From IMG/VR virus record IMGVR_UViG_3300050151_000071, positions 1 through 64,000 of that record: a stretch of DNA of 64,000 bases. The stretch is one strand, 5' to 3'. Of this stretch, positions 1,524 to 30,769 are shown piece after piece (the first letter of the stretch is position 1; each line of letters begins with the position of its first letter). The notes beneath the pieces are model-generated. The model was given only the letters and a program-made list of their open reading frames with translations, searched no databases and was not told where the DNA came from. The position numbers were made by a program, and so were the translations under genes. Source of the stretch: a virus. Lineage: Duplodnaviria > Caudoviricetes.

Positions 1524-1832
1524 CTATTTAGGCGTTTTCATTCTCAGGAATACAGTATGGGCAGGGAAGTAAAGTGACTTGACCCGGTATTCCATTTGAG
1601 GTAGCAAATATTCTAACTCTACGATCTTCCCGTGATCGATGCAATGCTGAATTGCATCGTTAGTGACAGCTAAGGTATCGTTGGCTGTGATTGCGTAATC
1701 CCCATGAATACCTTGATGAATCTCACCTGAGATCTCAGTATAGATTTTCATTGCTGTAACCGGACCTTGAGTATTAACTTTCTCAACGATCAGTTCGATC
1801 AGCTTTTGCAGCAGGTCTTCGCGAGTTTGCAT
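1524..1832 (-). CDS. hypothetical protein
   Basis: 102-aa ORF coupled to the upstream gene by TAATG; ends in TAG. Confidence 0.7.
   Translation of the reverse strand: MQTREDLLQKLIELIVEKVNTQGPVTAMKIYTEISGEIHQGIHGDYAITANDTLAVTNDAIQHCIDHGKIVELEYLLPQMEYRVKSLYFPAHTVFLRMKTPK
1525..1531 (-). promoter_or_regulatory. late promoter CTAAATA
   Basis: CTAAATA 5 nt before the ATG at 1519; T4-like late element recurring before late-type genes. Confidence 0.6.
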
Positions 1833-2377
1833 TATCGGTTTCTCAAATGTTGACGAGTTGCAGTCAGAACTTGACCAAGCCAGTTCTTACCTTTCCAATT
1901 CTCACGATCTTCAATAGCTGGATCATCGTAAGCAAGCTTTACGCCCCACACAGAATCGTATGAAGCACCTTCTACCAGAATTCGATCGTCGGTCTCTAAA
2001 AGGTATTGTTTGAGATCTTCATTCTGACCAAACTTGGCGACGTTTCCACGGAACACCAATTCTCGAGCACAAAGGTCCCAAAGAGCTTCATCAAAGTTGC
2101 GAACTTGACGACCCAGTGCTTTGTGCTCTTTAGGGTTAGTTTCACGGAGGATTGCAGTGTACACATCCACGTCATGAAAAAGCAGAGCTTTACTCGCCAT
2201 CATGAACTGTTCACAACACGAGAACTTTCCAGCTTCGTAGCCTGGGAAAGGTGATGCGATGAATTCAGACGTGTACCATTGGCTGAATGGCCCACCAACG
2301 AAATAGACGTGAGTATCGGTTCTACGCTCTTTATATGACGGACCGTTTACATAATCGTATTTCATCGTATGTTCCAT
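1832..2377 (-). CDS. NADAR family protein (YbiA/T4 gp30.3-like)
   Basis: FSQWY, EQFMMASKA, K.LGRQV, KFGQN..LK..LL.T, LVE.ASYD..WG and NWLGQVL motifs. Confidence 0.9.
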   Translation of the reverse strand: MEHTMKYDYVNGPSYKERRTDTHVYFVGGPFSQWYTSEFIASPFPGYEAGKFSCCEQFMMASKALLFHDVDVYTAILRETNPKEHKALGRQVRNFDEALWDLCARELVFRGNVAKFGQNEDLKQYLLETDDRILVEGASYDSVWGVKLAYDDPAIEDRENWKGKNWLGQVLTATRQHLRNR

Positions 2378-2384
2378 TCTAAGT

Positions 2385-2460
2385 TGGCTGTCCTACCTGG
2401 ACTCGAACCAGGATCCCGACGCTTTAGAGACGAGTGCAATAACCATTATACCATAGGACA
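2385..2460 (-). tRNA. tRNA with CUA anticodon (putative amber suppressor; Trp/Gln-like body, U1-A72, G73)
   Basis: TGTCCTA/TAGGACA acceptor, G+CCA end, T-arm CCTGG-TTCGAGT-CCAGG, loop CT-CTA-AA; anticodon stem has only 3 of 5 pairs. Confidence 0.7.
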
Positions 2461-2589
2461 TAAAATATGCGCTGCTCTTCACCTTGACGTATTAGAGCAC
2501 TCCACTCCGCTAAGAGCGTCTTCCGATCAGTGTTCCAACCAACTGGAATCAAGGACAGTCGGTGCTTGTTTCACTTCTACGCATATATT

Positions 2590-2706
2590 TGGTGGACCCA
2601 GGTGGATTTTTACCACCAATCCCCTTTAGCAACCCGAAGGGTGTTTTGTCGCCTAACTAAGCCCTCACGATCGCAAGGAGTTAGCAGAAGTTGAAACTAT
2701 GGGTCC
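2590..2706 (-). ncRNA. tRNA-like RNA with ~45-nt hairpin inserted in the D-loop
   Basis: GGACCCA/TGGGTCC+ACCA acceptor, GTTT/AAAC D-stem, CCCTT/AAGGG arm with 10-nt loop, T-arm GGTGG-TAAAAAT-CCACC. Confidence 0.7.
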
Positions 2707-2711
2707 GTCTT

Positions 2712-2789
2712 TGGTGCGCCGTGCGGGACTCGAACCCGCAACCAAATCTTTTAGAGGGATCTGCTCTAACCAAATTGAGCTAACAGCGC
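2712..2789 (-). tRNA. second tRNA with CUA anticodon (putative amber suppressor, A73)
   Basis: GCGCTGT/ACGGCGC acceptor, GCTC/GAGC D-stem, GATCC-CTCTAAA-AGATT arm, canonical T-arm, encoded CCA. Confidence 0.8.
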
Positions 2790-2798
2790 ATTATTTCG

Positions 2799-2961
2799 TG
2801 GAACCGAGAAAAGGACTCTGATCCTAGTCTCACAGGCTTTACGATCGATTACCTTCTATTGATTCTCGGGCACAGTAGGGCTCATACAATAAACAGGGCA
2901 TATGACCTCCCTGCCGCCTCTAACTAGATCCGCTAAACCAGTTAATCCCTATCTCAGTTCC
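2799..2961 (-). ncRNA. candidate ~163-nt structured ncRNA
   Basis: 10-bp closing helix GGAACTGAGA/TCTCGGTTCC; internal hairpins TAACTGG/CTAGTTA, CAGGG/CCCTG, AGGA/TCCT; no ORF; lies in the tRNA array. Confidence 0.55.
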
Positions 2962-3007
2962 TAAGGATGAATATAGAGGATTCGGAATTTTGGATCAACA
3001 GAAAAAT

Positions 3008-3247
3008 TCAGTAACTTTTGAGGATTCTACCATCAGGTCCAACACACATCTTGCTGATGTTGGAGTGGCTCATATCAATCACTTGTCCATTTGCTTTGAC
3101 ACAGTCGATCACAAACTGTTTACGGAAAGCTTGAACTTCTGCAACTTGCTTAGGCCCACCAGTAGCGATGAAAAAGATATGGAATGCTACTACTGCAATC
3201 AAGATTATGAGAAGGAACGGTAAACGTTCCCTCATTTCTTGACCCAC
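3008..3247 (-). CDS. small membrane-anchored hypothetical protein
   Basis: N-terminal hydrophobic helix, two Cys. Confidence 0.65.
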   Translation of the reverse strand: MGQEMRERLPFLLIILIAVVAFHIFFIATGGPKQVAEVQAFRKQFVIDCVKANGQVIDMSHSNISKMCVGPDGRILKSY

Positions 3248-3801
3248 TTACCGTCGATCTGCACCTCAAGGATTTCTCCGGTATCTTTATCGTGTATCTG
3301 AGCTTGAGCTTTACCGTCAACATCCGCAATTACGTAGTTATGAGGAAGATCTCGGACCGCTTGTGCTACTCGTTCACCAGCTTCATTAGCTAGTTGTTGA
3401 GCCTGACGATACACGATCTTATCATCATTTGACATATCAGCTTCTTCAATCCACTGGAAGGAAGAGACTGTGGTGCCCCTAGCAAATTGCTCTTGATGAT
3501 CAGATCCGAAGTCTTCGATCAGCTTGCGATCTAATCCTTCGTATAGTTCGTCCGTAGCGTCGGCCGAACGGAAGAATTGACCGAATGCTTTCTTCAAGCA
3601 GTGTTGGCATACGTCAAGTTGGTGACGATCCATATCACCAAACACAGAACCGTATCCACCTACGAAGTCGATGTAAACGAACTCTTGGAGTTCCAAAACA
3701 TCGTTAGGATCTTGTTGTTTGTTGTAAGAAGTCTTGCACACGTCACACGTGGCTCCGACAACTTCTTGCTTTTCGTAACAAACAAGTTCTGAGATTCTCA
3801 T
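3232..3801 (-). CDS. hypothetical protein with CxxC...CxxC
   Basis: CDVC and CQHC motifs; overlaps its neighbours. Confidence 0.7.
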   Translation of the reverse strand: MRISELVCYEKQEVVGATCDVCKTSYNKQQDPNDVLELQEFVYIDFVGGYGSVFGDMDRHQLDVCQHCLKKAFGQFFRSADATDELYEGLDRKLIEDFGSDHQEQFARGTTVSSFQWIEEADMSNDDKIVYRQAQQLANEAGERVAQAVRDLPHNYVIADVDGKAQAQIHDKDTGEILEVQIDGKWVKK

Positions 3802-4283
3802 ATGATTCCCAATGCTTTCAGTTCTGCAATGGATTGCTTAGCAGACGTATGGAGAATCCAGTGTCCGCTATTGCTCGTCCATGCGTCAATGTGTTTGGGC
3901 CAGTCATCTACGATAACATCGCCAGGCCTGCAATATATCGACTTCTCTTTCGAAAGACAAGTGATCAAATGCAGTTTAGGGAAATATTTGTCACGCCATT
4001 CTAATTTCTGTCGAGTGGCCCATCCACCACGAGGGCATCCGGTGAGGATGATGGGGTTGAGGTGTTCAACAGCTTCTACGAGCTCATATGCATCCGGCAT
4101 TGGCTCAAGATCGGTGAAGAAATTTGGTGTGGAGTAAAGCTTATTCCAGAAAGCTTCTGAACCATGTAGTTCTTCATACTCTCTTGAAAACATACCGAAG
4201 ATTTCATGAGCCCGTTTATCAAAATCCGCCAACACCCCGTCGCAGTCCAAGAAAATAGTTCTGTTTCTAGCCGTCAAAGTCAT
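3798..4283 (-). CDS. HAD-family 5'(3')-deoxyribonucleotidase (NT5C-like)
   Basis: IFLDCDGVLADF motif I, ILTG, KEK and IVDD motifs. Confidence 0.85.
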   Translation of the reverse strand: MTLTARNRTIFLDCDGVLADFDKRAHEIFGMFSREYEELHGSEAFWNKLYSTPNFFTDLEPMPDAYELVEAVEHLNPIILTGCPRGGWATRQKLEWRDKYFPKLHLITCLSKEKSIYCRPGDVIVDDWPKHIDAWTSNSGHWILHTSAKQSIAELKALGII

Positions 4284-4292
4284 TGAATACTC

Positions 4293-4320
4293 CTAAATAG
4301 CTCATACAATTTTGGAGCTA
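4293..4320 (+). promoter_or_regulatory. late promoter plus RBS-sequestering hairpin
   Basis: CTAAATA at 4293-4299; TAGCTC/GAGCTA hairpin overlaps the GGAG RBS of the endonuclease gene. Confidence 0.6.
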
Positions 4321-4322
4321 TT

Positions 4323-5252
4323 ATGTCAACAAATAAATTTTATGTTTATATCTACTACCATCCCACGACAATGGTTCCATTCTATGTGGGAAAAGGTTAC
4401 TCTGATCGTAGCTTAGTTCACTTGAAGGAAGCTAAAAACTGGAATGGTAAAATGCGCAAGGGTAAAAATGCTCATAAGCTTAATACTATTAAGTCAATCA
4501 TCGATCAAGGGTTAGAACCGTTGATTGTTAGAACATTTCATACAAATGATGAAACGCAAGCGTTCGCTGAAGAAGTACGTTTGATCAAACTATTCGGTAG
4601 AGCTGATTTGTTTCAAGGATCACTAACCAACTTAACAGATGGAGGAGAAGGTTTAGCGGGATATAAACACTCAAAGGAACAAAAGGATCGTATGAGTGCT
4701 TCTCGTACAGGTCCAGCTAACGGTATGTTTGGTAAAACCCATACTCCTGAAGTTAGAGAACGCATGTCTAAACTTCGGAAGGGTAAACCAGGAACTCCTC
4801 ACACAGAAGAACTTAAACAATCGCGTATTGGTAACGACAACAACGCTAAGAGGCGCAAGACTATCTATAAGATGGACTTGGATGGAACCATCGTTGAAAG
4901 CTATCCATCATTCTTAAACGCTGTAAAGATGACTTCGATACCTAAAGCAACTCTACATAAAAATGTGAAATATGGTGGATTACCTATAGATGGCTTTTTC
5001 TATCAATATGAACCCGTTATACACGACAGACAGGAACTTATTGCTCGTCGAACGTTGAGTAATAGTAACCAAACTAATGTTCGTAAAGTCGAACAAGTAC
5101 TAAATGGTGAAATTATTACCACCTTCGACTCAATCAAACAAGCTGCTATTACAGTTGGAAAGTTAGGTGGAAATTATGCTAACCTATGGTATAAGATTAG
5201 AGATGAAAAACCATACGTAGGATACGTTTGGAGGTATTCAAATCCTATCTAA
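4323..5252 (+). CDS. free-standing GIY-YIG homing endonuclease with NUMOD3/NUMOD1-like repeats
   Basis: YVYIY..P...PFYVGKG..R...H; HSKEQKDRMS and HTPEVRERMS repeats; FDSIKQAA; antisense to its neighbours. Confidence 0.85.
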   Translation: MSTNKFYVYIYYHPTTMVPFYVGKGYSDRSLVHLKEAKNWNGKMRKGKNAHKLNTIKSIIDQGLEPLIVRTFHTNDETQAFAEEVRLIKLFGRADLFQGSLTNLTDGGEGLAGYKHSKEQKDRMSASRTGPANGMFGKTHTPEVRERMSKLRKGKPGTPHTEELKQSRIGNDNNAKRRKTIYKMDLDGTIVESYPSFLNAVKMTSIPKATLHKNVKYGGLPIDGFFYQYEPVIHDRQELIARRTLSNSNQTNVRKVEQVLNGEIITTFDSIKQAAITVGKLGGNYANLWYKIRDEKPYVGYVWRYSNPI

Positions 5253-5444
5253 CGGACAAGCAGAACGAGGAACAACTTTAATGTATTTGTTACCATACTC
5301 GTTCATTGTTGGAATTTCATATGTGGCATCAGGATCTCCACAAACTAAATCGTGAACACTAATGCACCGTGCTTCACAGTGAGTACAAACCCACTGAGGA
5401 CGCTTGAATAAGCTCGTAAACCATTTAAACATGAATTGGAACAT
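5238..5444 (-). CDS. hypothetical protein (Cys-containing)
   Basis: 68-aa ORF; its start overlaps the 3' end of the tRNA-Glu gene. Confidence 0.5.
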   Translation of the reverse strand: MFQFMFKWFTSLFKRPQWVCTHCEARCISVHDLVCGDPDATYEIPTMNEYGNKYIKVVPRSACPLDRI

Positions 5445-5512
5445 CCAACGGGATTCGAACCCGCATCACCTGATTGAAAGTCAAGTATCCTAGACCGTTA
5501 GACGATGGATGC
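5437..5512 (-). tRNA. trnE: tRNA-Glu(UUC)
   Basis: Cloverleaf with CTTGA-CT TTC AA-TCAGG arm and encoded CCA. Confidence 0.95.
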
Positions 5513-5524
5513 ACATATTGTGAT

Positions 5525-5600
5525 TGGTACACCCAAGGGAACTCGAATCCCTATTTCCGCAGTGAAAGTGCGACGACTTAACCAGTTAGTCGATGGATGC
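5525..5600 (-). tRNA. trnE: tRNA-Glu(UUC), second copy
   Basis: Cloverleaf with TCGCA-CT TTC AC-TGCGG arm and encoded CCA. Confidence 0.95.
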
Positions 5601-5691
5601 ATAACGATACGATCGCCTGAACCCATTAACTGAATTCAGGCGGTGGTCTCTGACATCTCTCGAACTGTGGTAGTCATGGTCTTAGTCCTTG

Positions 5692-5961
5692 TTAAATTAC
5701 ATGGTCGTATGTTTGACCATCGATCCTATTTGTATAGAGATCAACATTTATTTTCTTAGTAGCAGCGAGTTCTTTAGCTCTCCAGACCATTTGTTCTTGG
5801 TCTTTTAAGCCTTCAAACGTTCGCCTTGTTTCTTCTACTTCTCTATCGAAGAGATCAAACAGTCGCTGCTTAGCGCCTTGTTTGTTCTGTGCCGCAACTT
5901 GGTAATATTCGTAATGATGAAGCCTGGGCTCCACGATAGCATAAAACATTACCATCTGCAT
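5692..5961 (-). CDS. hypothetical protein
   Basis: 89-aa ORF between tRNA genes. Confidence 0.65.
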   Translation of the reverse strand: MQMVMFYAIVEPRLHHYEYYQVAAQNKQGAKQRLFDLFDREVEETRRTFEGLKDQEQMVWRAKELAATKKINVDLYTNRIDGQTYDHVI

Positions 5962-6031
5962 ACTCTAAATTGTAGTTAGAGTCTGAGAGAAGCTCCCGCC
6001 GGTCTCAGACTCTGCCATTGCGGCAAATATT

Positions 6032-6106
6032 TGGCACCACCAACGGAATTCGAATCCGTGCTACAACCGTGACAGGGTTGCGTGCTGGCCACTACACTAT
6101 GGTGGT
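6032..6106 (-). tRNA. trnD: tRNA-Asp(GUC)
   Basis: ACCACCA/TGGTGGT acceptor, CAACC-CT GTC AC-GGTTG arm, GCCA end. Confidence 0.93.
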
Positions 6107-6523
6107 ATTGTTTGTTATCTCAAACCTTCCGGCATGAAACTTCTTATGACAGTTCGAGCAAAGACAAACACATTTGCTTATCTCTAGCATAAGCTTATCC
6201 CACTTTAATTGAACCATACTAGCAATACCATACTCCTTTTGAGATGGATCTAAGTGGTGGAACTCTAAGCAAGCTGGATCAGCTTCATTGCATTTTAAAC
6301 ACTTCAAAGAACTTTTCAACGCAGAAAGTTTTGCTGCGCATTCTTTTCTGCGTTTATTGTGCTGTTCTTTATATCGATCTCCGTAGGTCTCTTTCCACTT
6401 TGATCTATGGTCTTCTTTAGCGCACTGCTTACAATATGATTGTAATCCGTCCGCCCTACTTTTATCTTTCCTGAAATCTGACGTATTCTTATCTACGTCA
6501 CACCTACAGCATTTCTTAATCAT
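6092..6523 (-). CDS. free-standing HNH endonuclease
   Basis: N-terminal CCRC..CKQC zinc finger; CLKC...LEFHHLDP...KCVCLCSNCHKKFH; 3' end overlaps tRNA-Asp. Confidence 0.85.
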   Translation of the reverse strand: MIKKCCRCDVDKNTSDFRKDKSRADGLQSYCKQCAKEDHRSKWKETYGDRYKEQHNKRRKECAAKLSALKSSLKCLKCNEADPACLEFHHLDPSQKEYGIASMVQLKWDKLMLEISKCVCLCSNCHKKFHAGRFEITNNTTIV

Positions 6524-6551
6524 AATACCTCCACTCTTTGAAGGTATTTAG
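6524..6551 (-). promoter_or_regulatory. late promoter plus RBS-sequestering hairpin
   Basis: CTAAATA at 6551-6545; AATACCT/AGGTATT stem overlaps the GGAGG RBS. Confidence 0.7.
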
Positions 6552-6601
6552 GGTTCAACCATGAACAGTTTTGAACCCAATATGGTCATTCGACCGAAAC
6601 T

Positions 6602-6678
6602 TGGTACCCGAGGAGGGATTCGAACCCCCGCATGCCAGGATGTAAACCTGGAGCCTTAAACCACTTGGCGACTCGGGC
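6602..6678 (-). tRNA. trnV: tRNA-Val(UAC)
   Basis: Cloverleaf with CCAGG-TT TAC AT-CCTGG arm and ACCA end. Confidence 0.95.
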
Positions 6679-6806
6679 AGAAACTCCTCTGGTGCGCATC
6701 GTAGAGAGGCGTGAGGAGTGTTGTTACATTTGTAGAAGAATAAGCCAAGGTAACTAGTGTTGTCTTGCGCCCTTATTCTTAATCACTGTTTCCAGCAATT
6801 GGTAGT

Positions 6807-6835
6807 ATTATATATGATCTAAAATGAAAGATCAA
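6807..6835 (-). promoter_or_regulatory. early promoter driving the tRNA cluster
   Basis: TTGATC-N17-TATAAT. Confidence 0.7.
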
Positions 6836-6847
6836 CGATAATTTTGC

Positions 6848-7288
6848 TTAGATTTTATCGTTAGTCCAATGTGGTGTTCTGATGTCGTCTGGATGCTCCA
6901 TAACATGAGCATTGCCACGGAATGATGACATTATAGTGTGACGTTGGTATCCACCAATTTGGTCAGTCTTTTTATTCACTCGAATATGAACATCACCGTC
7001 ACTGTAGTGATCTGCACCTCGACCTTCAGTATGCGTTAATCCAGCATCAAGCAAGTTCTTTTTAACTTGGTCTTTATCGTTGTAATGGACCTCTAAGACA
7101 TGTCGGTGAGTCTTGTGGAGTATATCTTGACCATCGGAAGGCTTAACGTTCAGGCCTTCGGTAGCTTTAGTAACAACACCTACAGCACGAGCAAATGCTT
7201 CATGCTTTTCAGGCAATGACAATGACTCAGTTAGAGTCTTATTGATTGCCGCAAAGAGACCTTTGTTGTTACCGATGTTATCAACCAT
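6848..7288 (-). CDS. leader-family protein 7 (putative internal protein)
   Basis: MVDNIGNNKGLFAAINKTLTE leader; His-rich body. Confidence 0.8.
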   Translation of the reverse strand: MVDNIGNNKGLFAAINKTLTESLSLPEKHEAFARAVGVVTKATEGLNVKPSDGQDILHKTHRHVLEVHYNDKDQVKKNLLDAGLTHTEGRGADHYSDGDVHIRVNKKTDQIGGYQRHTIMSSFRGNAHVMEHPDDIRTPHWTNDKI

Positions 7289-7291
7289 TGA

Positions 7292-7759
7292 TTAATCTCT
7301 ACCATACACGTGACTATTGTCGGTATCGTCTTGAGATTCATCATCCACAGCTTGCTCGTGACGCTTCACAGACGCAGCTTTATGCTTAGCAAAGTCTTTA
7401 CCATGATCATAGAGTGAATCTGTTTCAGATACCTTTCTGCTTAGCTTCATAGCTTCGTTGTGGTGCTCTGTAGCTCTTGCGTAGCTCTCATCGGCTCCAT
7501 CATAGTGTTTGTTATTTTCTTGGTTATGGCCCACATCATTATGATAGTGATACTGATCAAGGTGATATCGAATTTCACTATGTTCTGGAGATTCGTTACG
7601 ACGGCGGGCAGCGGCTTCGCTTCTGTCAGCTGGGGGCGCGTTGGGGCCTTCTGCTGAGTAATGCTTTTCACCGAATGCTTCACCAGAATTGTATGTTTCG
7701 CTGATTGTTTTACCAATAGCTGCAAACAAGCCTTTGTTATTGCCGATGTTATTAATCAT
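7292..7759 (-). CDS. leader-family protein 6
   Basis: MINNIGNNKGLFAAIGKTISE leader. Confidence 0.8.
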   Translation of the reverse strand: MINNIGNNKGLFAAIGKTISETYNSGEAFGEKHYSAEGPNAPPADRSEAAARRRNESPEHSEIRYHLDQYHYHNDVGHNQENNKHYDGADESYARATEHHNEAMKLSRKVSETDSLYDHGKDFAKHKAASVKRHEQAVDDESQDDTDNSHVYGRD

Positions 7760-8130
7760 TAGTAACTCTTCGCTTGGTTAATATACTCTTGAATATGAGC
7801 GTGAATCTGCTCTCTGGATGACTTCACCATTCCCTTAAAATCGCGGTCGTGGTTATACGTTGGATTTGCAGCTTCATGAGCTTTACTATGTTCTTGAGCT
7901 TTTCTCAAGTGGTGTAAGGCTGTGTCATTTGCTAGATCAGCGGCGACTTCGTTTTTAGCTGCTTGATGGCCAACCATGTCCATTGTATGAATGTGGTAGT
8001 TGTGCAATGCGGTATTCATTAGCTCATGGGCTAATCCCAAGCTTTCAGATACTACTTCAATTGTCTCGGTAACTAAAGTTTTACCAATAGCTGCAAACAA
8101 GCCTTTGTTATTGCCGATGTTATTAATCAT
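7759..8130 (-). CDS. leader-family protein 5
   Basis: MINNIGNNKGLFAAIGKTLVTE leader; TAATG coupling. Confidence 0.8.
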   Translation of the reverse strand: MINNIGNNKGLFAAIGKTLVTETIEVVSESLGLAHELMNTALHNYHIHTMDMVGHQAAKNEVAADLANDTALHHLRKAQEHSKAHEAANPTYNHDRDFKGMVKSSREQIHAHIQEYINQAKSY

Positions 8131-8735
8131 TACCAGCGCTCCTGCTTCATGTGATCTTCTAGTTCCGACTTAAAGACACTATGTGAATGCTCATCAAATG
8201 CTTTACGGTCGGCAAATTCGTGATCCGGATTTTGCTTCGCGAAGGTAGCATGTGCTGTGTCTAAATGTGAGCTCAATTTAGCTACATGGTCCTTCATTTG
8301 CTTACCCAAGCTATACGAATGTAGTGGTGCAGCATCATTGATTGCACTAGCATGCTTCCATTGGTGAACACTGTGCGCTAAGTCCAACAGAGAATCTGTT
8401 GTGGGGTGAGCTACTGTATCTTTATGAGGATTACGGTTATAATGATCAGCAGCAGCTAGAGCAGCTCCACCACTAACAGCAACGTTACGTGCAACTACAC
8501 GACCACTTTCACGATGCTTAACGTTGTAATAACCATGCTCAGAATCATAGTCAGCATGATAAGGAGCAGCAGACCTTGCAGCAGCTTCGCTCTTATCTGC
8601 CGGAGGCGGAATACCAGCCGCTGAATCATCATGGCTGTAGTGTGAGCCGAATGCTTCGCCAGATTTATAGGTTTCGGTTAGAGTCTTACCAATGGCTCCG
8701 AAGAGACCTTTGTTATTGCCGATGTTATCGATCAT
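8130..8735 (-). CDS. leader-family protein 4
   Basis: MIDNIGNNKGLFGAIGKTLTE leader. Confidence 0.8.
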   Translation of the reverse strand: MIDNIGNNKGLFGAIGKTLTETYKSGEAFGSHYSHDDSAAGIPPPADKSEAAARSAAPYHADYDSEHGYYNVKHRESGRVVARNVAVSGGAALAAADHYNRNPHKDTVAHPTTDSLLDLAHSVHQWKHASAINDAAPLHSYSLGKQMKDHVAKLSSHLDTAHATFAKQNPDHEFADRKAFDEHSHSVFKSELEDHMKQERW

Positions 8736-9543
8736 TGTAATGTTCCTTAGGATCTACGTGGCTAATCTTCCAGCCGTCTACAGCATGATCTTCAAGCTTA
8801 CCTTCATGGGGACTTCTCCAACCATGACCTGCAACTGTGCCTGCTAGTTGAGTCTTACCATCTCTTTTGAATTCATGTACAGACGCTGTACAGCAAGGGG
8901 AAATAGCAATACGTCCCGTAGCTTCATGAGCTTCGAACGGTGCTTCTTTTGTCCGATAGAAGTGAGGATCGTTTACACTAGTCTTCAGATCGTTACCACG
9001 ATCTATACGTTGACCATTGTTATATTGATGTGCATCTTGCAAAGCACCCCAACGTTCTCGGGTTCCCATTGACATGACGCGACCAGAAGAATGAACAACG
9101 TGATGATAGCCAGATTTGTGATCTGTCTGAACGTCATAGTGTTTGCCACCATTTTGAGCAGGGTCAAATGGTTTTGGTTCAAACTGTTCTACAATAGGGG
9201 AGATTGTCTTATTAATTGCAGTAAATAACCCTCTATCACGCTTAGATTCATTTACTGGTTTTTTAACCCTTAGACCTGGACCATTCTCAGTATATGCCTT
9301 CGCAGTATCGTGAGCATCTTCTGCATCATCGGTATGGTAATCAGCTTTTGTTTGATGCTCACCTTTTTCGTTGTAGAACTTCACACGATGTTCGCCCCAT
9401 TCGGTGTCTTTGTAGACCTTTGCTGAGCGACCACTTTCGTGGGTATGCGTTTTTAAGAGACGCAGAGAAGAACGTTCTTCGGTGAGTGTTTTTGTAATAG
9501 CAGCCAACAGGCTCGCATCGAATTCAGGAATGTTGCTTTTCAT
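8725..9543 (-). CDS. leader-family protein with two leader-like segments
   Basis: Start reassigned to 9543 (TAATG overlap); SLLAAITKTLTEE at the N-terminus and internal RGLFTAINKTISPIVE. Confidence 0.75.
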   Translation of the reverse strand: MKSNIPEFDASLLAAITKTLTEERSSLRLLKTHTHESGRSAKVYKDTEWGEHRVKFYNEKGEHQTKADYHTDDAEDAHDTAKAYTENGPGLRVKKPVNESKRDRGLFTAINKTISPIVEQFEPKPFDPAQNGGKHYDVQTDHKSGYHHVVHSSGRVMSMGTRERWGALQDAHQYNNGQRIDRGNDLKTSVNDPHFYRTKEAPFEAHEATGRIAISPCCTASVHEFKRDGKTQLAGTVAGHGWRSPHEGKLEDHAVDGWKISHVDPKEHYNDR

Positions 9544-9956
9544 TAGTTGAAGCTCTTTGTCTGATAACGCTTGTGCCAATCTTCAAGATCATTGTGGTGG
9601 CCATCATCAGCAATATCAGCATGCGATTCGAGGCCGTAGTTACACTTTCCACTAGCTACGATTTCGGCAGCTTGTTTCATGTGGTGTTCTTTTGCTTTGG
9701 TCAATGCATCAACTATAGCACTATGGTGTTCATCAGCTGTTCCTGTATTGTCAATAAGCGACAAAGCGGCATGATACCCCTTAGCACTATGTAAATGTCC
9801 AACGACATTCATATCATGATCATTTGGATCAAGGTCTTCTGGGTGTGAGGTTGCATCTGATTCAGATACTACCTTCACCTCAAGCTTTGCCGTAGGAGTT
9901 AGAGTCTTATTGATGGCCCCAAAGAGACCTTTATTATTACCAATGCTGTCGATCAT
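9543..9956 (-). CDS. leader-family protein 1
   Basis: MIDSIGNNKGLFGAINKTLT leader; first gene after the ATAAATA late-like element at 9995-9989. Confidence 0.8.
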   Translation of the reverse strand: MIDSIGNNKGLFGAINKTLTPTAKLEVKVVSESDATSHPEDLDPNDHDMNVVGHLHSAKGYHAALSLIDNTGTADEHHSAIVDALTKAKEHHMKQAAEIVASGKCNYGLESHADIADDGHHNDLEDWHKRYQTKSFN

Positions 9957-10007
9957 GTTAGTCCCTTATCGAAGGTTGCTTTATACCTTATTTATCAATA
10001 AGGAAGT

Positions 10008-10082
10008 TGGTAGTCCCTAGTGGGCTCGAACCACTGTCCTCTTCCGTGTCGAGGAAGCGCTCTACCGCTGAGCTAAGGGACT
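10008..10082 (-). tRNA. trnV: tRNA-Val(GAC)
   Basis: AGTCCCT/AGGGACT acceptor, CTTCC-TC GAC AC-GGAAG arm (C33), ACCA end. Confidence 0.9.
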
Positions 10083-11310: not shown

Positions 11311-11752
11311 AGCTTCCACCGCCAGAATCTGAAGAAGAGCTGCTGGAATCCGACGAGCAACTGCTAGAGTAGCTTGAAGTCGAACTAGAGTCGTTGCTGC
11401 TATAGTCATAAGCAGGAGTGTAATCATACACTGGAGATGAAGAACGACTTGAGTATGAGTCGGATGAATCAGTAGTGCGCTTAGCTGGAGTCGAACGAGC
11501 GGGAGACTTCTTTGCTGTAGACACTGTTGAAGCTTTCCTAGTCGCAGGCTTAGCCTCTTGTACGGTTGAAGTTGCTACTCGCGGTGTTTGACGTACCGGA
11601 ACTTCTTTAATGGAAAATCCAGTCGGGATTTCACCAGATGTGAATTGTAACGGCTTCTGGTCGAGTTTAGCATTTTCACCATCTCGAGCAACTACAAATG
11701 CGATGGCTATGATAATAACGGCAACAATGCCGACAAATGTCCAAAAGAACAA
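11294..11752 (-). CDS. membrane-anchored Ser-rich low-complexity protein
   Basis: N-terminal TM helix; C-terminal SSSSDSGGGSCGGGD. Confidence 0.75.
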   Translation of the reverse strand: MFFWTFVGIVAVIIIAIAFVVARDGENAKLDQKPLQFTSGEIPTGFSIKEVPVRQTPRVATSTVQEAKPATRKASTVSTAKKSPARSTPAKRTTDSSDSYSSRSSSPVYDYTPAYDYSSNDSSSTSSYSSSCSSDSSSSSSDSGGGSCGGGD

Positions 11753-25278: not shown

Positions 25279-25354
25279 TGGAGTCAAGGGTAGGATTTGA
25301 ACCTACGTTTCCCGATGGGGGCAAAGGGTGTCCTAAACACTAGACGACCTCGAC
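25279..25354 (-). tRNA. Gly-like tRNA (U73) with aberrant C-rich anticodon arm
   Basis: GTCGAGG/CCTTGAC acceptor, canonical D and T arms, CCC-TTTGCCCCCATC-GGG arm. Confidence 0.6.
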
Positions 25355-29187: not shown

Positions 29188-29592
29188 TTAATATAAACTA
29201 GTATTGGTGGGTAAAGACTTCTGGACAGCATCTTGAAGCTCTTTTAGATATACAAGCTGCTCTTGTTGATCTGCTGACGGATGGCCGCCCAAACCTTCAA
29301 TATTTTTGATTCGATTTTCTAGGTTTACGATATCCTCACACGCTCTTGTAAGGGCAGCTCGCTTATCGTTTTCACGATGCGTCACATACTCATGAAGAGC
29401 CCACAAAATATCTTTTTTATCAACATCTTGCTTGTTGTGAAGCTTGAAGATGATACTACCCATACGACACTTATCAGCAGCTAACTGGTTAGCTCGCTCT
29501 TTAAAGTTTACAGGTCTAGCAATGGGCGACTCAGTGGGTGATGGAAAACGACCGTATTGACGGCCATCATCATCGTAATCTCGACAAGGCAT
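29188..29592 (-). CDS. hypothetical protein
   Basis: Start at MPCRDYDD; coiled-coil C-terminus. Confidence 0.7.
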   Translation of the reverse strand: MPCRDYDDDGRQYGRFPSPTESPIARPVNFKERANQLAADKCRMGSIIFKLHNKQDVDKKDILWALHEYVTHRENDKRAALTRACEDIVNLENRIKNIEGLGGHPSADQQEQLVYLKELQDAVQKSLPTNTSLY

Positions 29593-30733
29593 GGTGGGCT
29601 CTTCCAATCAAATCAATTTTAGTTAAAGTGTAACGGCTTTCTTTCCACTGCTGGCGCAGATCAGCCAAAGCTTGGCCCACAATAGGACCAGCCATAATTT
29701 TATATTCATCCATGATGTCCTGACCCCGAATAGGGAAGACAGGAACATAATAGCCTTCTACAAACACCGCGATGTCGGGACGCAGAGTCATAGCGCACAG
29801 ACTGATGATATATTCAGTTGAAACACCATCAACCAACCAATCCATAACTCGATCCAGAGTCAGGTTGACGTAGTACTTGTCGGCCAGCCAAACGATTTTG
29901 TTCGTTTCAGCTCGAGACATCTTCCAGCTGTTACAGAACTCGCGAGCTTCTACAGGACGGCCAGTGAAGAACTGAGCGACCACTGAACAAGCATCATCAC
30001 TCCGATTCAACTCTTTGGCTAAGCCATCCAGCGGTAGGCCAATAGCTTTAGCCACGCCGTAATTATCCATCAAATGATACACGGATGCACGATCAGGATA
30101 AATAAAGAGCTTTTGCATCTCTAGCCAAACACGCTCACGGCTGATTTGTTTCAGTCCTTCAAGTGAGGCGTGTTGAGATATGATGTCACAATCGTTCCAA
30201 TCCATATCAGCGGAGAAACGTGCAGCAAAACGGAAGTAGCGCAGAATCCGCAGATAGTCTTCTTGGATTCGAGTTTTGGTGTCACCCACGAACCGAACGA
30301 TGTTATTCTTCAGATCATCGATGCCACCAAAGTAGTCATAGACTGTACCATCAAAGTCCATGCTCATTGCGTTCATTGTCAGATCCCGACGTGCAGCATC
30401 TTGTTCAAACGACGTGGTGTATTCGACTTCTGCGTGCCGACCATCAGTATCATTATCGATACGCAGGGTGGTGATTTCGAACGGCTCGTGATCTACAACG
30501 AACGTCACAGTGCCATGCTGCAGACCAGTCGGAACTACTGTGAAACCAGCTTCCTTACCGATCTCAACCAGTTTCTCGGGCAGAGCATCCGTACACATAT
30601 CGCAATCTTTAGGCTTCTCGCCTAAGATCAAATCTCGGACAAAGCCACCGACAGGGCGTAGTGAAAATCCACGAGACGTAATAGCGTCGTGGATTTTCAG
30701 CATCTGAGGATTTGTGATCGGATCTAGTTTCAT
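29570..30733 (-). CDS. cca: tRNA nucleotidyltransferase (CCA-adding / poly(A) polymerase class II)
   Basis: VGGFVRDLILG..KDCD, HGTV, EITTLR, DAARRDLTMNAM and EDYLRILRYFRF; no HD domain. Confidence 0.9.
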   Translation of the reverse strand: MKLDPITNPQMLKIHDAITSRGFSLRPVGGFVRDLILGEKPKDCDMCTDALPEKLVEIGKEAGFTVVPTGLQHGTVTFVVDHEPFEITTLRIDNDTDGRHAEVEYTTSFEQDAARRDLTMNAMSMDFDGTVYDYFGGIDDLKNNIVRFVGDTKTRIQEDYLRILRYFRFAARFSADMDWNDCDIISQHASLEGLKQISRERVWLEMQKLFIYPDRASVYHLMDNYGVAKAIGLPLDGLAKELNRSDDACSVVAQFFTGRPVEAREFCNSWKMSRAETNKIVWLADKYYVNLTLDRVMDWLVDGVSTEYIISLCAMTLRPDIAVFVEGYYVPVFPIRGQDIMDEYKIMAGPIVGQALADLRQQWKESRYTLTKIDLIGRAHHALSRLR

Positions 30734-30769
30734 AGATCCTTTATAGAGCATTCGATCTTAAATGTCAAC

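Follow-up and report, generated by a model that had tools for sequence, protein, structure and literature searches.

The classical amber suppressors supE, supF, supD and T4 psu are canonical elongator transfer RNAs (tRNAs) that carry the anticodon loop CUCUAAA and insert an amino acid at UAG. Viral stop codon read-through is found at the UGA of the Q-beta A1 protein and at the UAG of MuLV gag-pol, where near-cognate host tRNAs decode the stop at low efficiency and add a C-terminal extension. Several clades of phages, among them the crAss-like, Lak and Garnet phages, are recoded and read TAG as Gln (genetic code 15) (bioRxiv 10.1101/2021.08.26.457843). The Xanthomonas phage XacN1 carries two CUA suppressors in each terminal repeat; its published genome uses the standard code throughout, and its authors could identify no target beyond annotated TAG terminators (PMC5852040). 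In synthetic biology, an early amber codon and a separately expressed suppressor tRNA have been combined into AND-type gates on one gene (for example NAR 2021, PMC7969014). The purpose of suppressor tRNAs in many standard-code phages has been unclear so far. Here we describe a stretch of 64,000 nucleotides (nt), the window, positions 1 to 64,000 of IMG/VR virus record IMGVR_UViG_3300050151_000071 (Duplodnaviria; Caudoviricetes), which encodes two different tRNAs with CUA anticodons (2385-2460 and 2712-2789, both minus strand) and an HD-domain gene whose third codon is TAG. We consider it probable that this codon is a gene-specific amber gate operated by the two phage suppressor tRNAs and that the phage does not use code 15. 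A conserved amber at the start of HD and Pth2 genes would give the suppressors of such phages a concrete and testable purpose.

The HD-domain phosphohydrolase gene, recognized from its sequence and translation, lies at 18622-19224 on the minus strand and runs for 200 codons from an upstream ATG. Its codon 3, the proposed target of both tRNAs, is an in-frame TAG (19216-19218, minus strand) in the context ATG ACG TAG ATC, so the next base is A; a purine after UAG, A included, favours suppression. Expression signals for the upstream ATG are found at 19234-19279 on the same strand: a promoter-like TTGACT (19279-19274), a spacing of 17 nt, TATACT (19256-19251) and the ribosome-binding sequence AGGAG (19238-19234), 9 nt from the ATG. 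Gene callers start the protein at an inner conserved Met (19185-19183), which is in frame with the upstream ATG and ten codons beyond the TAG and has no purine-rich ribosome-binding site before it. The TAG is present in six other assemblies, and the two contig pieces of other runs that cover it show no differences. In the proposed mechanism, ribosomes starting at the upstream ATG would stop after two residues when no charged tRNA(CUA) is at hand, and the very early position of the UAG would keep such failed attempts cheap. When charged tRNA(CUA) outcompetes release factor 1, read-through would yield the full HD protein, with its first 13 residues joining the first helix. We infer both the charging of the tRNAs and actual read-through at the predicted gate, whose purpose might lie in timing, in dosage or in a feedback on the suppressors. 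As in Q-beta and MuLV, a single stop in one gene would be decoded as sense to give a functional longer protein; unlike in those viruses, the phage itself supplies cognate suppressors, and the stop stands at the start of the gene, where it would act as an on/off gate and would not produce two isoforms.

The HD protein has more than 300 homologues, with E-values down to 4e-79, some of which are fused to a Pth2 peptidyl-tRNA hydrolase domain. We grouped 80 family loci from viral contigs, the closest relative and the window into 58 clusters at 80% identity, and took the stops that open long frames in the same HD loci as background. The nearest upstream in-frame stop before the conserved Met is TAG in 49 of the 58 clusters, against 24% in the background (p = 4e-22; the clusters are related, so the p-values overstate their independence), and an ATG stands 1-8 codons before the TAG in 45 clusters, against 5%. 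The base that follows the leader TAG is A in 34 of 46 cases and never T, and the codon after it is often ATT, ATC or ATA. Across 12 independent pairs, leader differences fall on codon positions 1, 2 and 3 in the numbers 19, 9 and 27 (p = 0.012), a pattern which implies that the stretch behind the TAG is under coding constraint. The closest relative (L111, a contig of a metagenome-assembled genome at NCBI, 69% identical) reads ATG TCG TAG ATC AGA AAT: codon 2 differs, the TAG is kept, and the leader I-R-N...L...P-M is preserved through synonymous changes (CGC>AGA, CTC>CTT). The design also extends to Pth2, since in Pth2-HD fusions the amber stands where the Pth2 part begins, and stand-alone Pth2-like genes adjoining HD genes have an amber of their own in an M-x-TAG start. 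In an AlphaFold model of the window's HD protein (pLDDT 95), leader residues form part of the first helix (7-16), with residues 7-13 at pLDDT >90.

The same arrangement could be read as a two-codon upstream mini open reading frame (mini-ORF), ATG-NNN-TAG, that acts through termination and re-initiation or through peptidyl-tRNA drop-off, with the CUA tRNAs unrelated to it. The invariant inner Met of the HD family and the frequent ATT, ATC or ATA after the TAG are consistent with this, as is the precedent of the lambda bar minigenes, which cause peptidyl-tRNA drop-off; classical lambda genetics also connects two-codon minigenes with Pth. Any stop would do for such a mini-ORF, however, yet TAG is used in 49 of 58 clusters; tRNA(CUA) genes are strongly co-located on the same strand; the stretch from TAG to Met evolves as coding sequence and is modelled in a confident helix; and the inner ATG lacks a ribosome-binding site. 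We therefore give this explanation very little credence. An apparent alignment of the TAG with Gln in two ungated homologues (P0043 and P0024) was withdrawn, because their products fit the DNA only when TAG is read as Q, a gene-caller artefact. Public gene calls for short family contigs (L154-L157; ENA, Logan) likewise read TAG as Q, apparently set off by the single leader amber, so that the database proteins derived from them wrongly display a Gln at the gate.

The two tRNA(CUA) genes are genuine. Of the 13 tRNA genes that ARAGORN calls in the window, every one of them on the minus strand, two have the anticodon CTA. The first tRNA (class A; 2385-2460) has U1-A72, G73, an encoded CCA and a weak anticodon stem, and the second (class B; 2712-2789) has G1-C72, A73, an encoded CCA and a single anticodon-stem mismatch, C31.A39. 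ARAGORN and Infernal place both in the same register, with a 7-nt loop CUCUAAA, CUA at positions 34-36, U33 and a purine at 37, and the Rfam tRNA model (RF00005), whose gathering score is 29, gives them 48.2 and 62.4 bits. The initial annotation had proposed from the letters alone that the two share the loop CU-CUA-AA on different bodies, one with U1-A72, G73 and a weak anticodon stem and the other with G1-C72, A73 and a near-complete cloverleaf; the cloverleaves match this description, and ARAGORN, which it had named as a check, calls both genes tRNA(cta). The 453-bp stretch that holds both genes is 100% identical in two more assemblies from other samples. Contig pieces from other leaf-litter runs give the same result, with no difference in the piece spanning the first tRNA (X6, 2300-2642) and a sole difference, at 3225, in the piece spanning the second (X4, 2582-4511).

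That one or both genes are decaying relics without function is suggested by the first tRNA, in which only three anticodon-stem pairs (C29-G41, G30-C40 and U31.G39) lie under two mismatches and the fold is no better than that of shuffled sequences (RNAfold z = -0.01, compared with -2.4 for the second tRNA). We think this most improbable: both tRNAs keep a perfect 7-bp acceptor stem, G18G19, the GGTTCGA T-loop and the encoded CCA, both score well above the Rfam threshold, the same unlike pairing recurs in distant phages, and the sequence is invariant across samples. We rejected the ARAGORN label 'Pyl', which follows the anticodon only. tRNA-Pyl is marked by a small D-loop without G18G19, a 3-nt variable loop, a 6-bp anticodon stem and the lack of a standard T-loop; the bodies found here have G18G19, 5-nt variable loops, 5-position anticodon stems and the GGTTCGA T-loop. 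The classical suppressors, anticodon mutants of normal tRNAs that are of laboratory or spontaneous origin, have no dedicated target, in contrast to the tRNAs described here, which are conserved wild-type genes accompanied by a conserved target codon.

The pairing of two unlike suppressors is itself a recurrent feature. We found 10 distinct loci with two CUA tRNAs, and 8 of them, the window included, combine a Y1-R72/G73 type with a G1-C72/A73 type; loci with a single suppressor mostly have the A73 type, and class B is the commonest suppressor type near HD genes (20 of 47 distinct sequences). In XacN1, the D, anticodon, variable and T arms of the two suppressors are identical, while all seven acceptor pairs and the discriminator base (A versus G) differ. 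As the anticodon has to be CUA, synthetases are left with the acceptor end for distinguishing the tRNAs, which argues that two different charging identities are selected in suppressor pairs. Because the acceptor-end identity marks also differ between the window's two tRNAs, they are probably charged by two different host synthetases. The recurring unlike pairs in distant phages and the XacN1 duplicates lend indirect support to the insertion of two different amino acids, and suggest the deliberate use of two charging routes for one codon. Under the identity rules of E. coli, U1-A72 together with G73 and U35 points to GlnRS for the first tRNA, and A73 with U35 points to LysRS for the second. Direct comparison gives mixed types: BLAST against phage tRNAs returns Asn, Gln and Lys for the first and Lys and Arg for the second, at 76-80% identity; among E. 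coli tRNAs the first has no match and the second matches Arg, Ile and Met; and in a comparison with 332 phage tRNAs the nearest neighbours are of the Gln (0.68) and Lys (0.75) types, with other types only just behind. An exact pattern taken from the second tRNA found no match in viral contigs. A search of the contig for a phage-encoded aminoacyl-tRNA synthetase gave no match to PF00587, PF00749 or PF00152. The closest relative carries a class II aminoacyl-tRNA synthetase-like gene (PF00587; L111:1-70) about 10 kb upstream of its gated HD gene, a family with no match in the window's contig.

The phages with code 15 resemble the present one in that a phage tRNA(CUA) in a standard-code host lets TAG-containing phage genes be translated, making expression conditional on the phage tRNA. 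They differ in extent: in code-15 phages tens of late genes contain many TAGs and coding density collapses under code 11, whereas here and in the relatives the code is standard, a single TAG at codons 2-9 is confined to one family (HD and Pth2-like), and the tRNAs form an unlike pair. The linear record of 75,922 bases within which the window lies is about 89-91% coding in the standard code, and its coding density is 0.885 under code 11 versus 0.878 with TAG as sense. Terminators of the 100 genes on the coding strand are TAA in 64 cases, TGA in 24 and TAG in 12. We scanned the contig for every TAG with a start codon before it and a long open frame after it, and found one convincing case, codon 3 of the HD gene. 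We discarded another candidate, at 11577, since its read-through frame is junk and the overlapping standard-code ORF encodes a plausible membrane, Ser-rich protein. We also rejected the idea of protective back-up stops behind TAG-ended genes, as extension lengths behind TAG show no difference from those behind the other two stops, TAA and TGA (p = 0.27, and p = 0.07 for long genes). The initial annotation had held that long genes contain no internal TAG, which is borne out across the contig except at codon 3 of the HD gene. Its further statement that the genome is not wholesale recoded stands for the visible ~42% (the CheckV completeness estimate for the record), a part that holds none of the late genes.

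This bears on the possibility that the phage is partly recoded and that its unseen late genes carry in-frame TAGs, as in crAss-like, Lak and related gut phages. The record, assembled from leaf-litter metagenomes, is linear, and of the genes of a distant T4-like phage it contains only those for early functions and replication, including NrdA/B, UvsX, a DnaB-like helicase, a Dda-like helicase, an RnlA-like RNA ligase, a CCA-adding enzyme and an Alt-like ADP-ribosyltransferase; genes for structural proteins and lysis are absent. TAA is the dominant terminator, and published recoded phages recode their late genes and keep replication genes standard. Attempts to extend the contig toward the late genes gained about 1.2 kb at one end, and the protein at the other end is not on record. 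Several results speak against partial recoding, however. TAG ends 12% of the coding-strand genes, including nrdB, uvsX, a helicase gene and that of a 975-residue protein; the flanks of 80 related loci gain no more density from reading TAG as sense than from a TGA control; the Gp23-like capsid gene and terminase genes of relatives that bear the module have no internal TAG; and two module-bearing phages, XacN1 and the complete relative described below, use the standard code throughout. We regard partial recoding as quite improbable, and the suggestion of targeted amber read-through rather than code 15 agrees with the standard-code density, the 12 TAG terminators in 100 genes, the conserved gated target and the standard-code relatives. 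As for the host, the alphaproteobacterium assumed at first is a guess only: the identity of UvsX to cultured phages is at most 51-52%, and its best matches are scattered over cyanophages and phages of Sinorhizobium, Erwinia and Stenotrophomonas.

The link between suppressor and gated gene can be followed in the relatives. With the window's own cluster excluded, 32 of 57 clusters have a tRNA(CUA) no more than 10 kb from the HD gene, always on the same strand and mostly less than 3 kb away (range 0.1 to 6.7 kb), and tRNA(CUA) occurs in 32 of the 39 HD loci that have any tRNA. CUA tRNAs make up 57 of the 467 tRNAs in HD loci and none of the 17 in control T4-like loci. Among cultured phages, the HD-family gene of XacN1 (ORF364) starts ATG AAG TAG. 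XacN1 is thus like the window's phage in being a standard-code phage with two CUA suppressors and an HD gene of the same ATG-NNN-TAG design; it differs in that it is a 385-kb jumbo phage, not T4-like, and in that its suppressors share one body, with differences in the acceptor stem and discriminator, whereas the window's two tRNAs differ throughout. The Tenacibaculum phage pT24 has only four tRNAs, one of which, a tRNA(CUA), precedes by 2.6 kb a Pth2-HD fusion with the start M-K-TAG, and RsoM2USA combines an amber-gated gene with a tRNA(CUA). The proposed gate can be checked directly in cultured XacN1, pT24 and RsoM2USA. A complete relative (G006; 447,763 bases, CheckV 100%) has a coding density of 91.6% under code 11 versus 91.4% with TAG as sense, and TAG terminates 34 of its 700 genes. 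Its convincing early-TAG genes are the HD gene and a Pth2-like gene only, each behind a ribosome-binding site, with two CUA tRNAs directly after them. A third supposedly gated gene in this genome (213475) was rejected, as its TAG belongs to the end of the ORF before it and there is an ATG 3 codons further on.

Another explanation is that the suppressors have a broader job, such as read-through of host or phage UAG terminators, countering of a host defence that acts on tRNAs or translation, or service as decoys, with the leader amber of HD and Pth2 genes a mere sensor of, or feedback on, that activity. In seven HD clusters and in the Acinetobacter phage ME3 the HD gene is ungated but still has a tRNA(CUA) next to it, so that the physical link persists without the gate; a single codon hardly seems to call for two suppressors whose identity marks differ; and the contig is rich in RNA-repair genes (RNA ligase, CCA-adding enzyme). 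A second class of targets was looked for and was not found: early stops outside the module in the complete relative are 22 TAG, 61 TAA and 31 TGA, so that TAG is not enriched, TAG-ended genes have no special read-through protection (p = 0.27), and the authors of the XacN1 article found nothing beyond its TAG terminators (PMC5852040). On balance we hold the broader job to be unlikely. The ungated cases do indicate that the link between tRNA and HD gene is not explained by the gate alone, and they suggest a functional tie between the two beyond it.

The identity of the gated protein is suggested by its modelled structure. The Pfam HD match is weak and Foldseek returned weak E-values only, but structural alignment with VIA-align gives a best solved match to residues 227-448 of PDB entries 3WFO-3WFS (Z 13.3, 161 aligned residues, 20% identity), above generic HD domains, whose Z reaches at most 9.8. 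A profile search matched the same chains around the HDxGKP motif (E = 8e-4). These entries bear the title 'tRNA processing enzyme' and name the deposited molecule 'Poly A polymerase', and we read the matched region as the C-terminal half of a class II tRNA nucleotidyltransferase; the similarity of the gated protein, on this modelling, is to the HD region of class II CCA-adding enzymes. The E. coli CCA-adding enzyme has an HD domain with 2',3'-cyclic phosphodiesterase and phosphatase activity. In the CCA-adding enzyme that the phage itself encodes (29570-30751, minus strand), Pfam finds a PolyA_pol head and RNA-binding domains and no HD match, and the amber-gated HD protein may be the missing phosphoesterase part of this enzyme, acting in trans. 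The closest relative also has both a CCA-adding and a gated HD gene, about 6 kb apart. Because the HD protein resembles the HD region of CCA-adding enzymes, and because Pth2 is fused or adjacent to it and gated alike, the gate probably controls enzymes that act on tRNA 3' ends. The 75.9-kb record itself yielded no Pth2-like partner, with neither a PF01981 nor a tblastn match, and 58% of the genome lies outside it; many relatives have the HD gene alone near the tRNA.

The gate may be part of something larger. Tentatively, the suppressor pair and the gated HD and Pth2 genes might together make up a self-contained phage circuit for sensing how the host translation system stands, an idea that we hold to be rather doubtful. 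In such a circuit, two sentinel tRNAs charged by two host synthetases would compete with release factor 1 and jointly set the output of tRNA 3'-end repair and recycling enzymes, and a feedback or feed-forward loop could hold read-through or tRNA damage in bounds during infection. If true, this would be a natural tRNA-operated regulatory device and no step toward a change of code.

A number of observations weigh against the amber gate. The weak anticodon stem of the first tRNA and its failure to fold better than shuffles have been described above, as have the seven HD clusters that have a tRNA(CUA) nearby and no amber leader, the ungated HD gene beside a tRNA(CUA) in ME3, and the relatedness of the clusters behind the p-values. 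The invariance of the inner Met means that a shorter protein might arise without read-through. The HD gene and the tRNA pair share one strand of the contig, but the HD gene lies 16.4 kb upstream, further off than in most relatives. Some 58% of this phage genome is unseen, and no RNA runs are listed that hold the stretch with the tRNA pair.

A full-text literature search returned papers on recoded phages and on orphan suppressors, and none among them describes an amber-gated HD or Pth2 gene. The window contributes a T4-like phage whose target is HD-only and lies far from the tRNAs, the recurrent unlike suppressor pair, and the reading of the acceptor-swapped duplicates of XacN1 as evidence for two identities. 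Unlike the engineered gates of synthetic biology (PMC7969014), the gate proposed here would be natural and conserved, and its output would be an enzyme of tRNA ends. Natural pairs of suppressors and gated leaders could serve as parts for genetic-code engineering. There is also a consequence for annotation, since the N-termini of gated genes are called wrongly and some pipelines switch short contigs to code 15 over one codon.

The surroundings of the tRNA pair show further features. A promoter-like site, TTGATC-17-TATATT, lies upstream of the pair (2970-2998, minus strand); it is weak and suggestive only, with 9 of 12 consensus matches, no commoner than in shuffled sequence. The roughly 250 nt between the suppressors (2461-2711) and the leader of roughly 180 nt before them (2790-2969), both on the minus strand, are non-coding and locally GC-rich, and neither matched an Rfam family. 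The pair is flanked by genes for a NADAR-domain protein (1832-2377, minus strand) and an NT5C-type 5'-nucleotidase (3798-4283, minus strand), with a GIY-YIG/NUMOD3 homing endonuclease at 4323-5252 on the opposite strand to these. The single relative found for the NADAR gene has no tRNA. Elsewhere in the window, an extra tRNA at 25282-25354 (minus strand; Rfam 44.4 bits) was missed by ARAGORN at default settings and is called Gly(CCC) at a lower threshold, with two anticodon-stem mismatches. Rfam also matches an abiF RNA (RF03085; 6683-6718, minus strand; 38.9 bits, gathering score 37) immediately upstream of a tRNA-Val (6602-6678), and a skipping-rope RNA (RF02924; 15219-15355, minus strand; 45.3 bits against 36.7) in the early region. 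Contigs of three other runs join tRNA-Val(UAC) near 6630 to tRNA-Val(GAC) near 10058 with about 21 other letters between, and a join of 5443 to 10076 is also listed; the former may represent either variants that lack the His-rich gene array of 3.4 kb or contigs wrongly joined at tRNAs that resemble each other.

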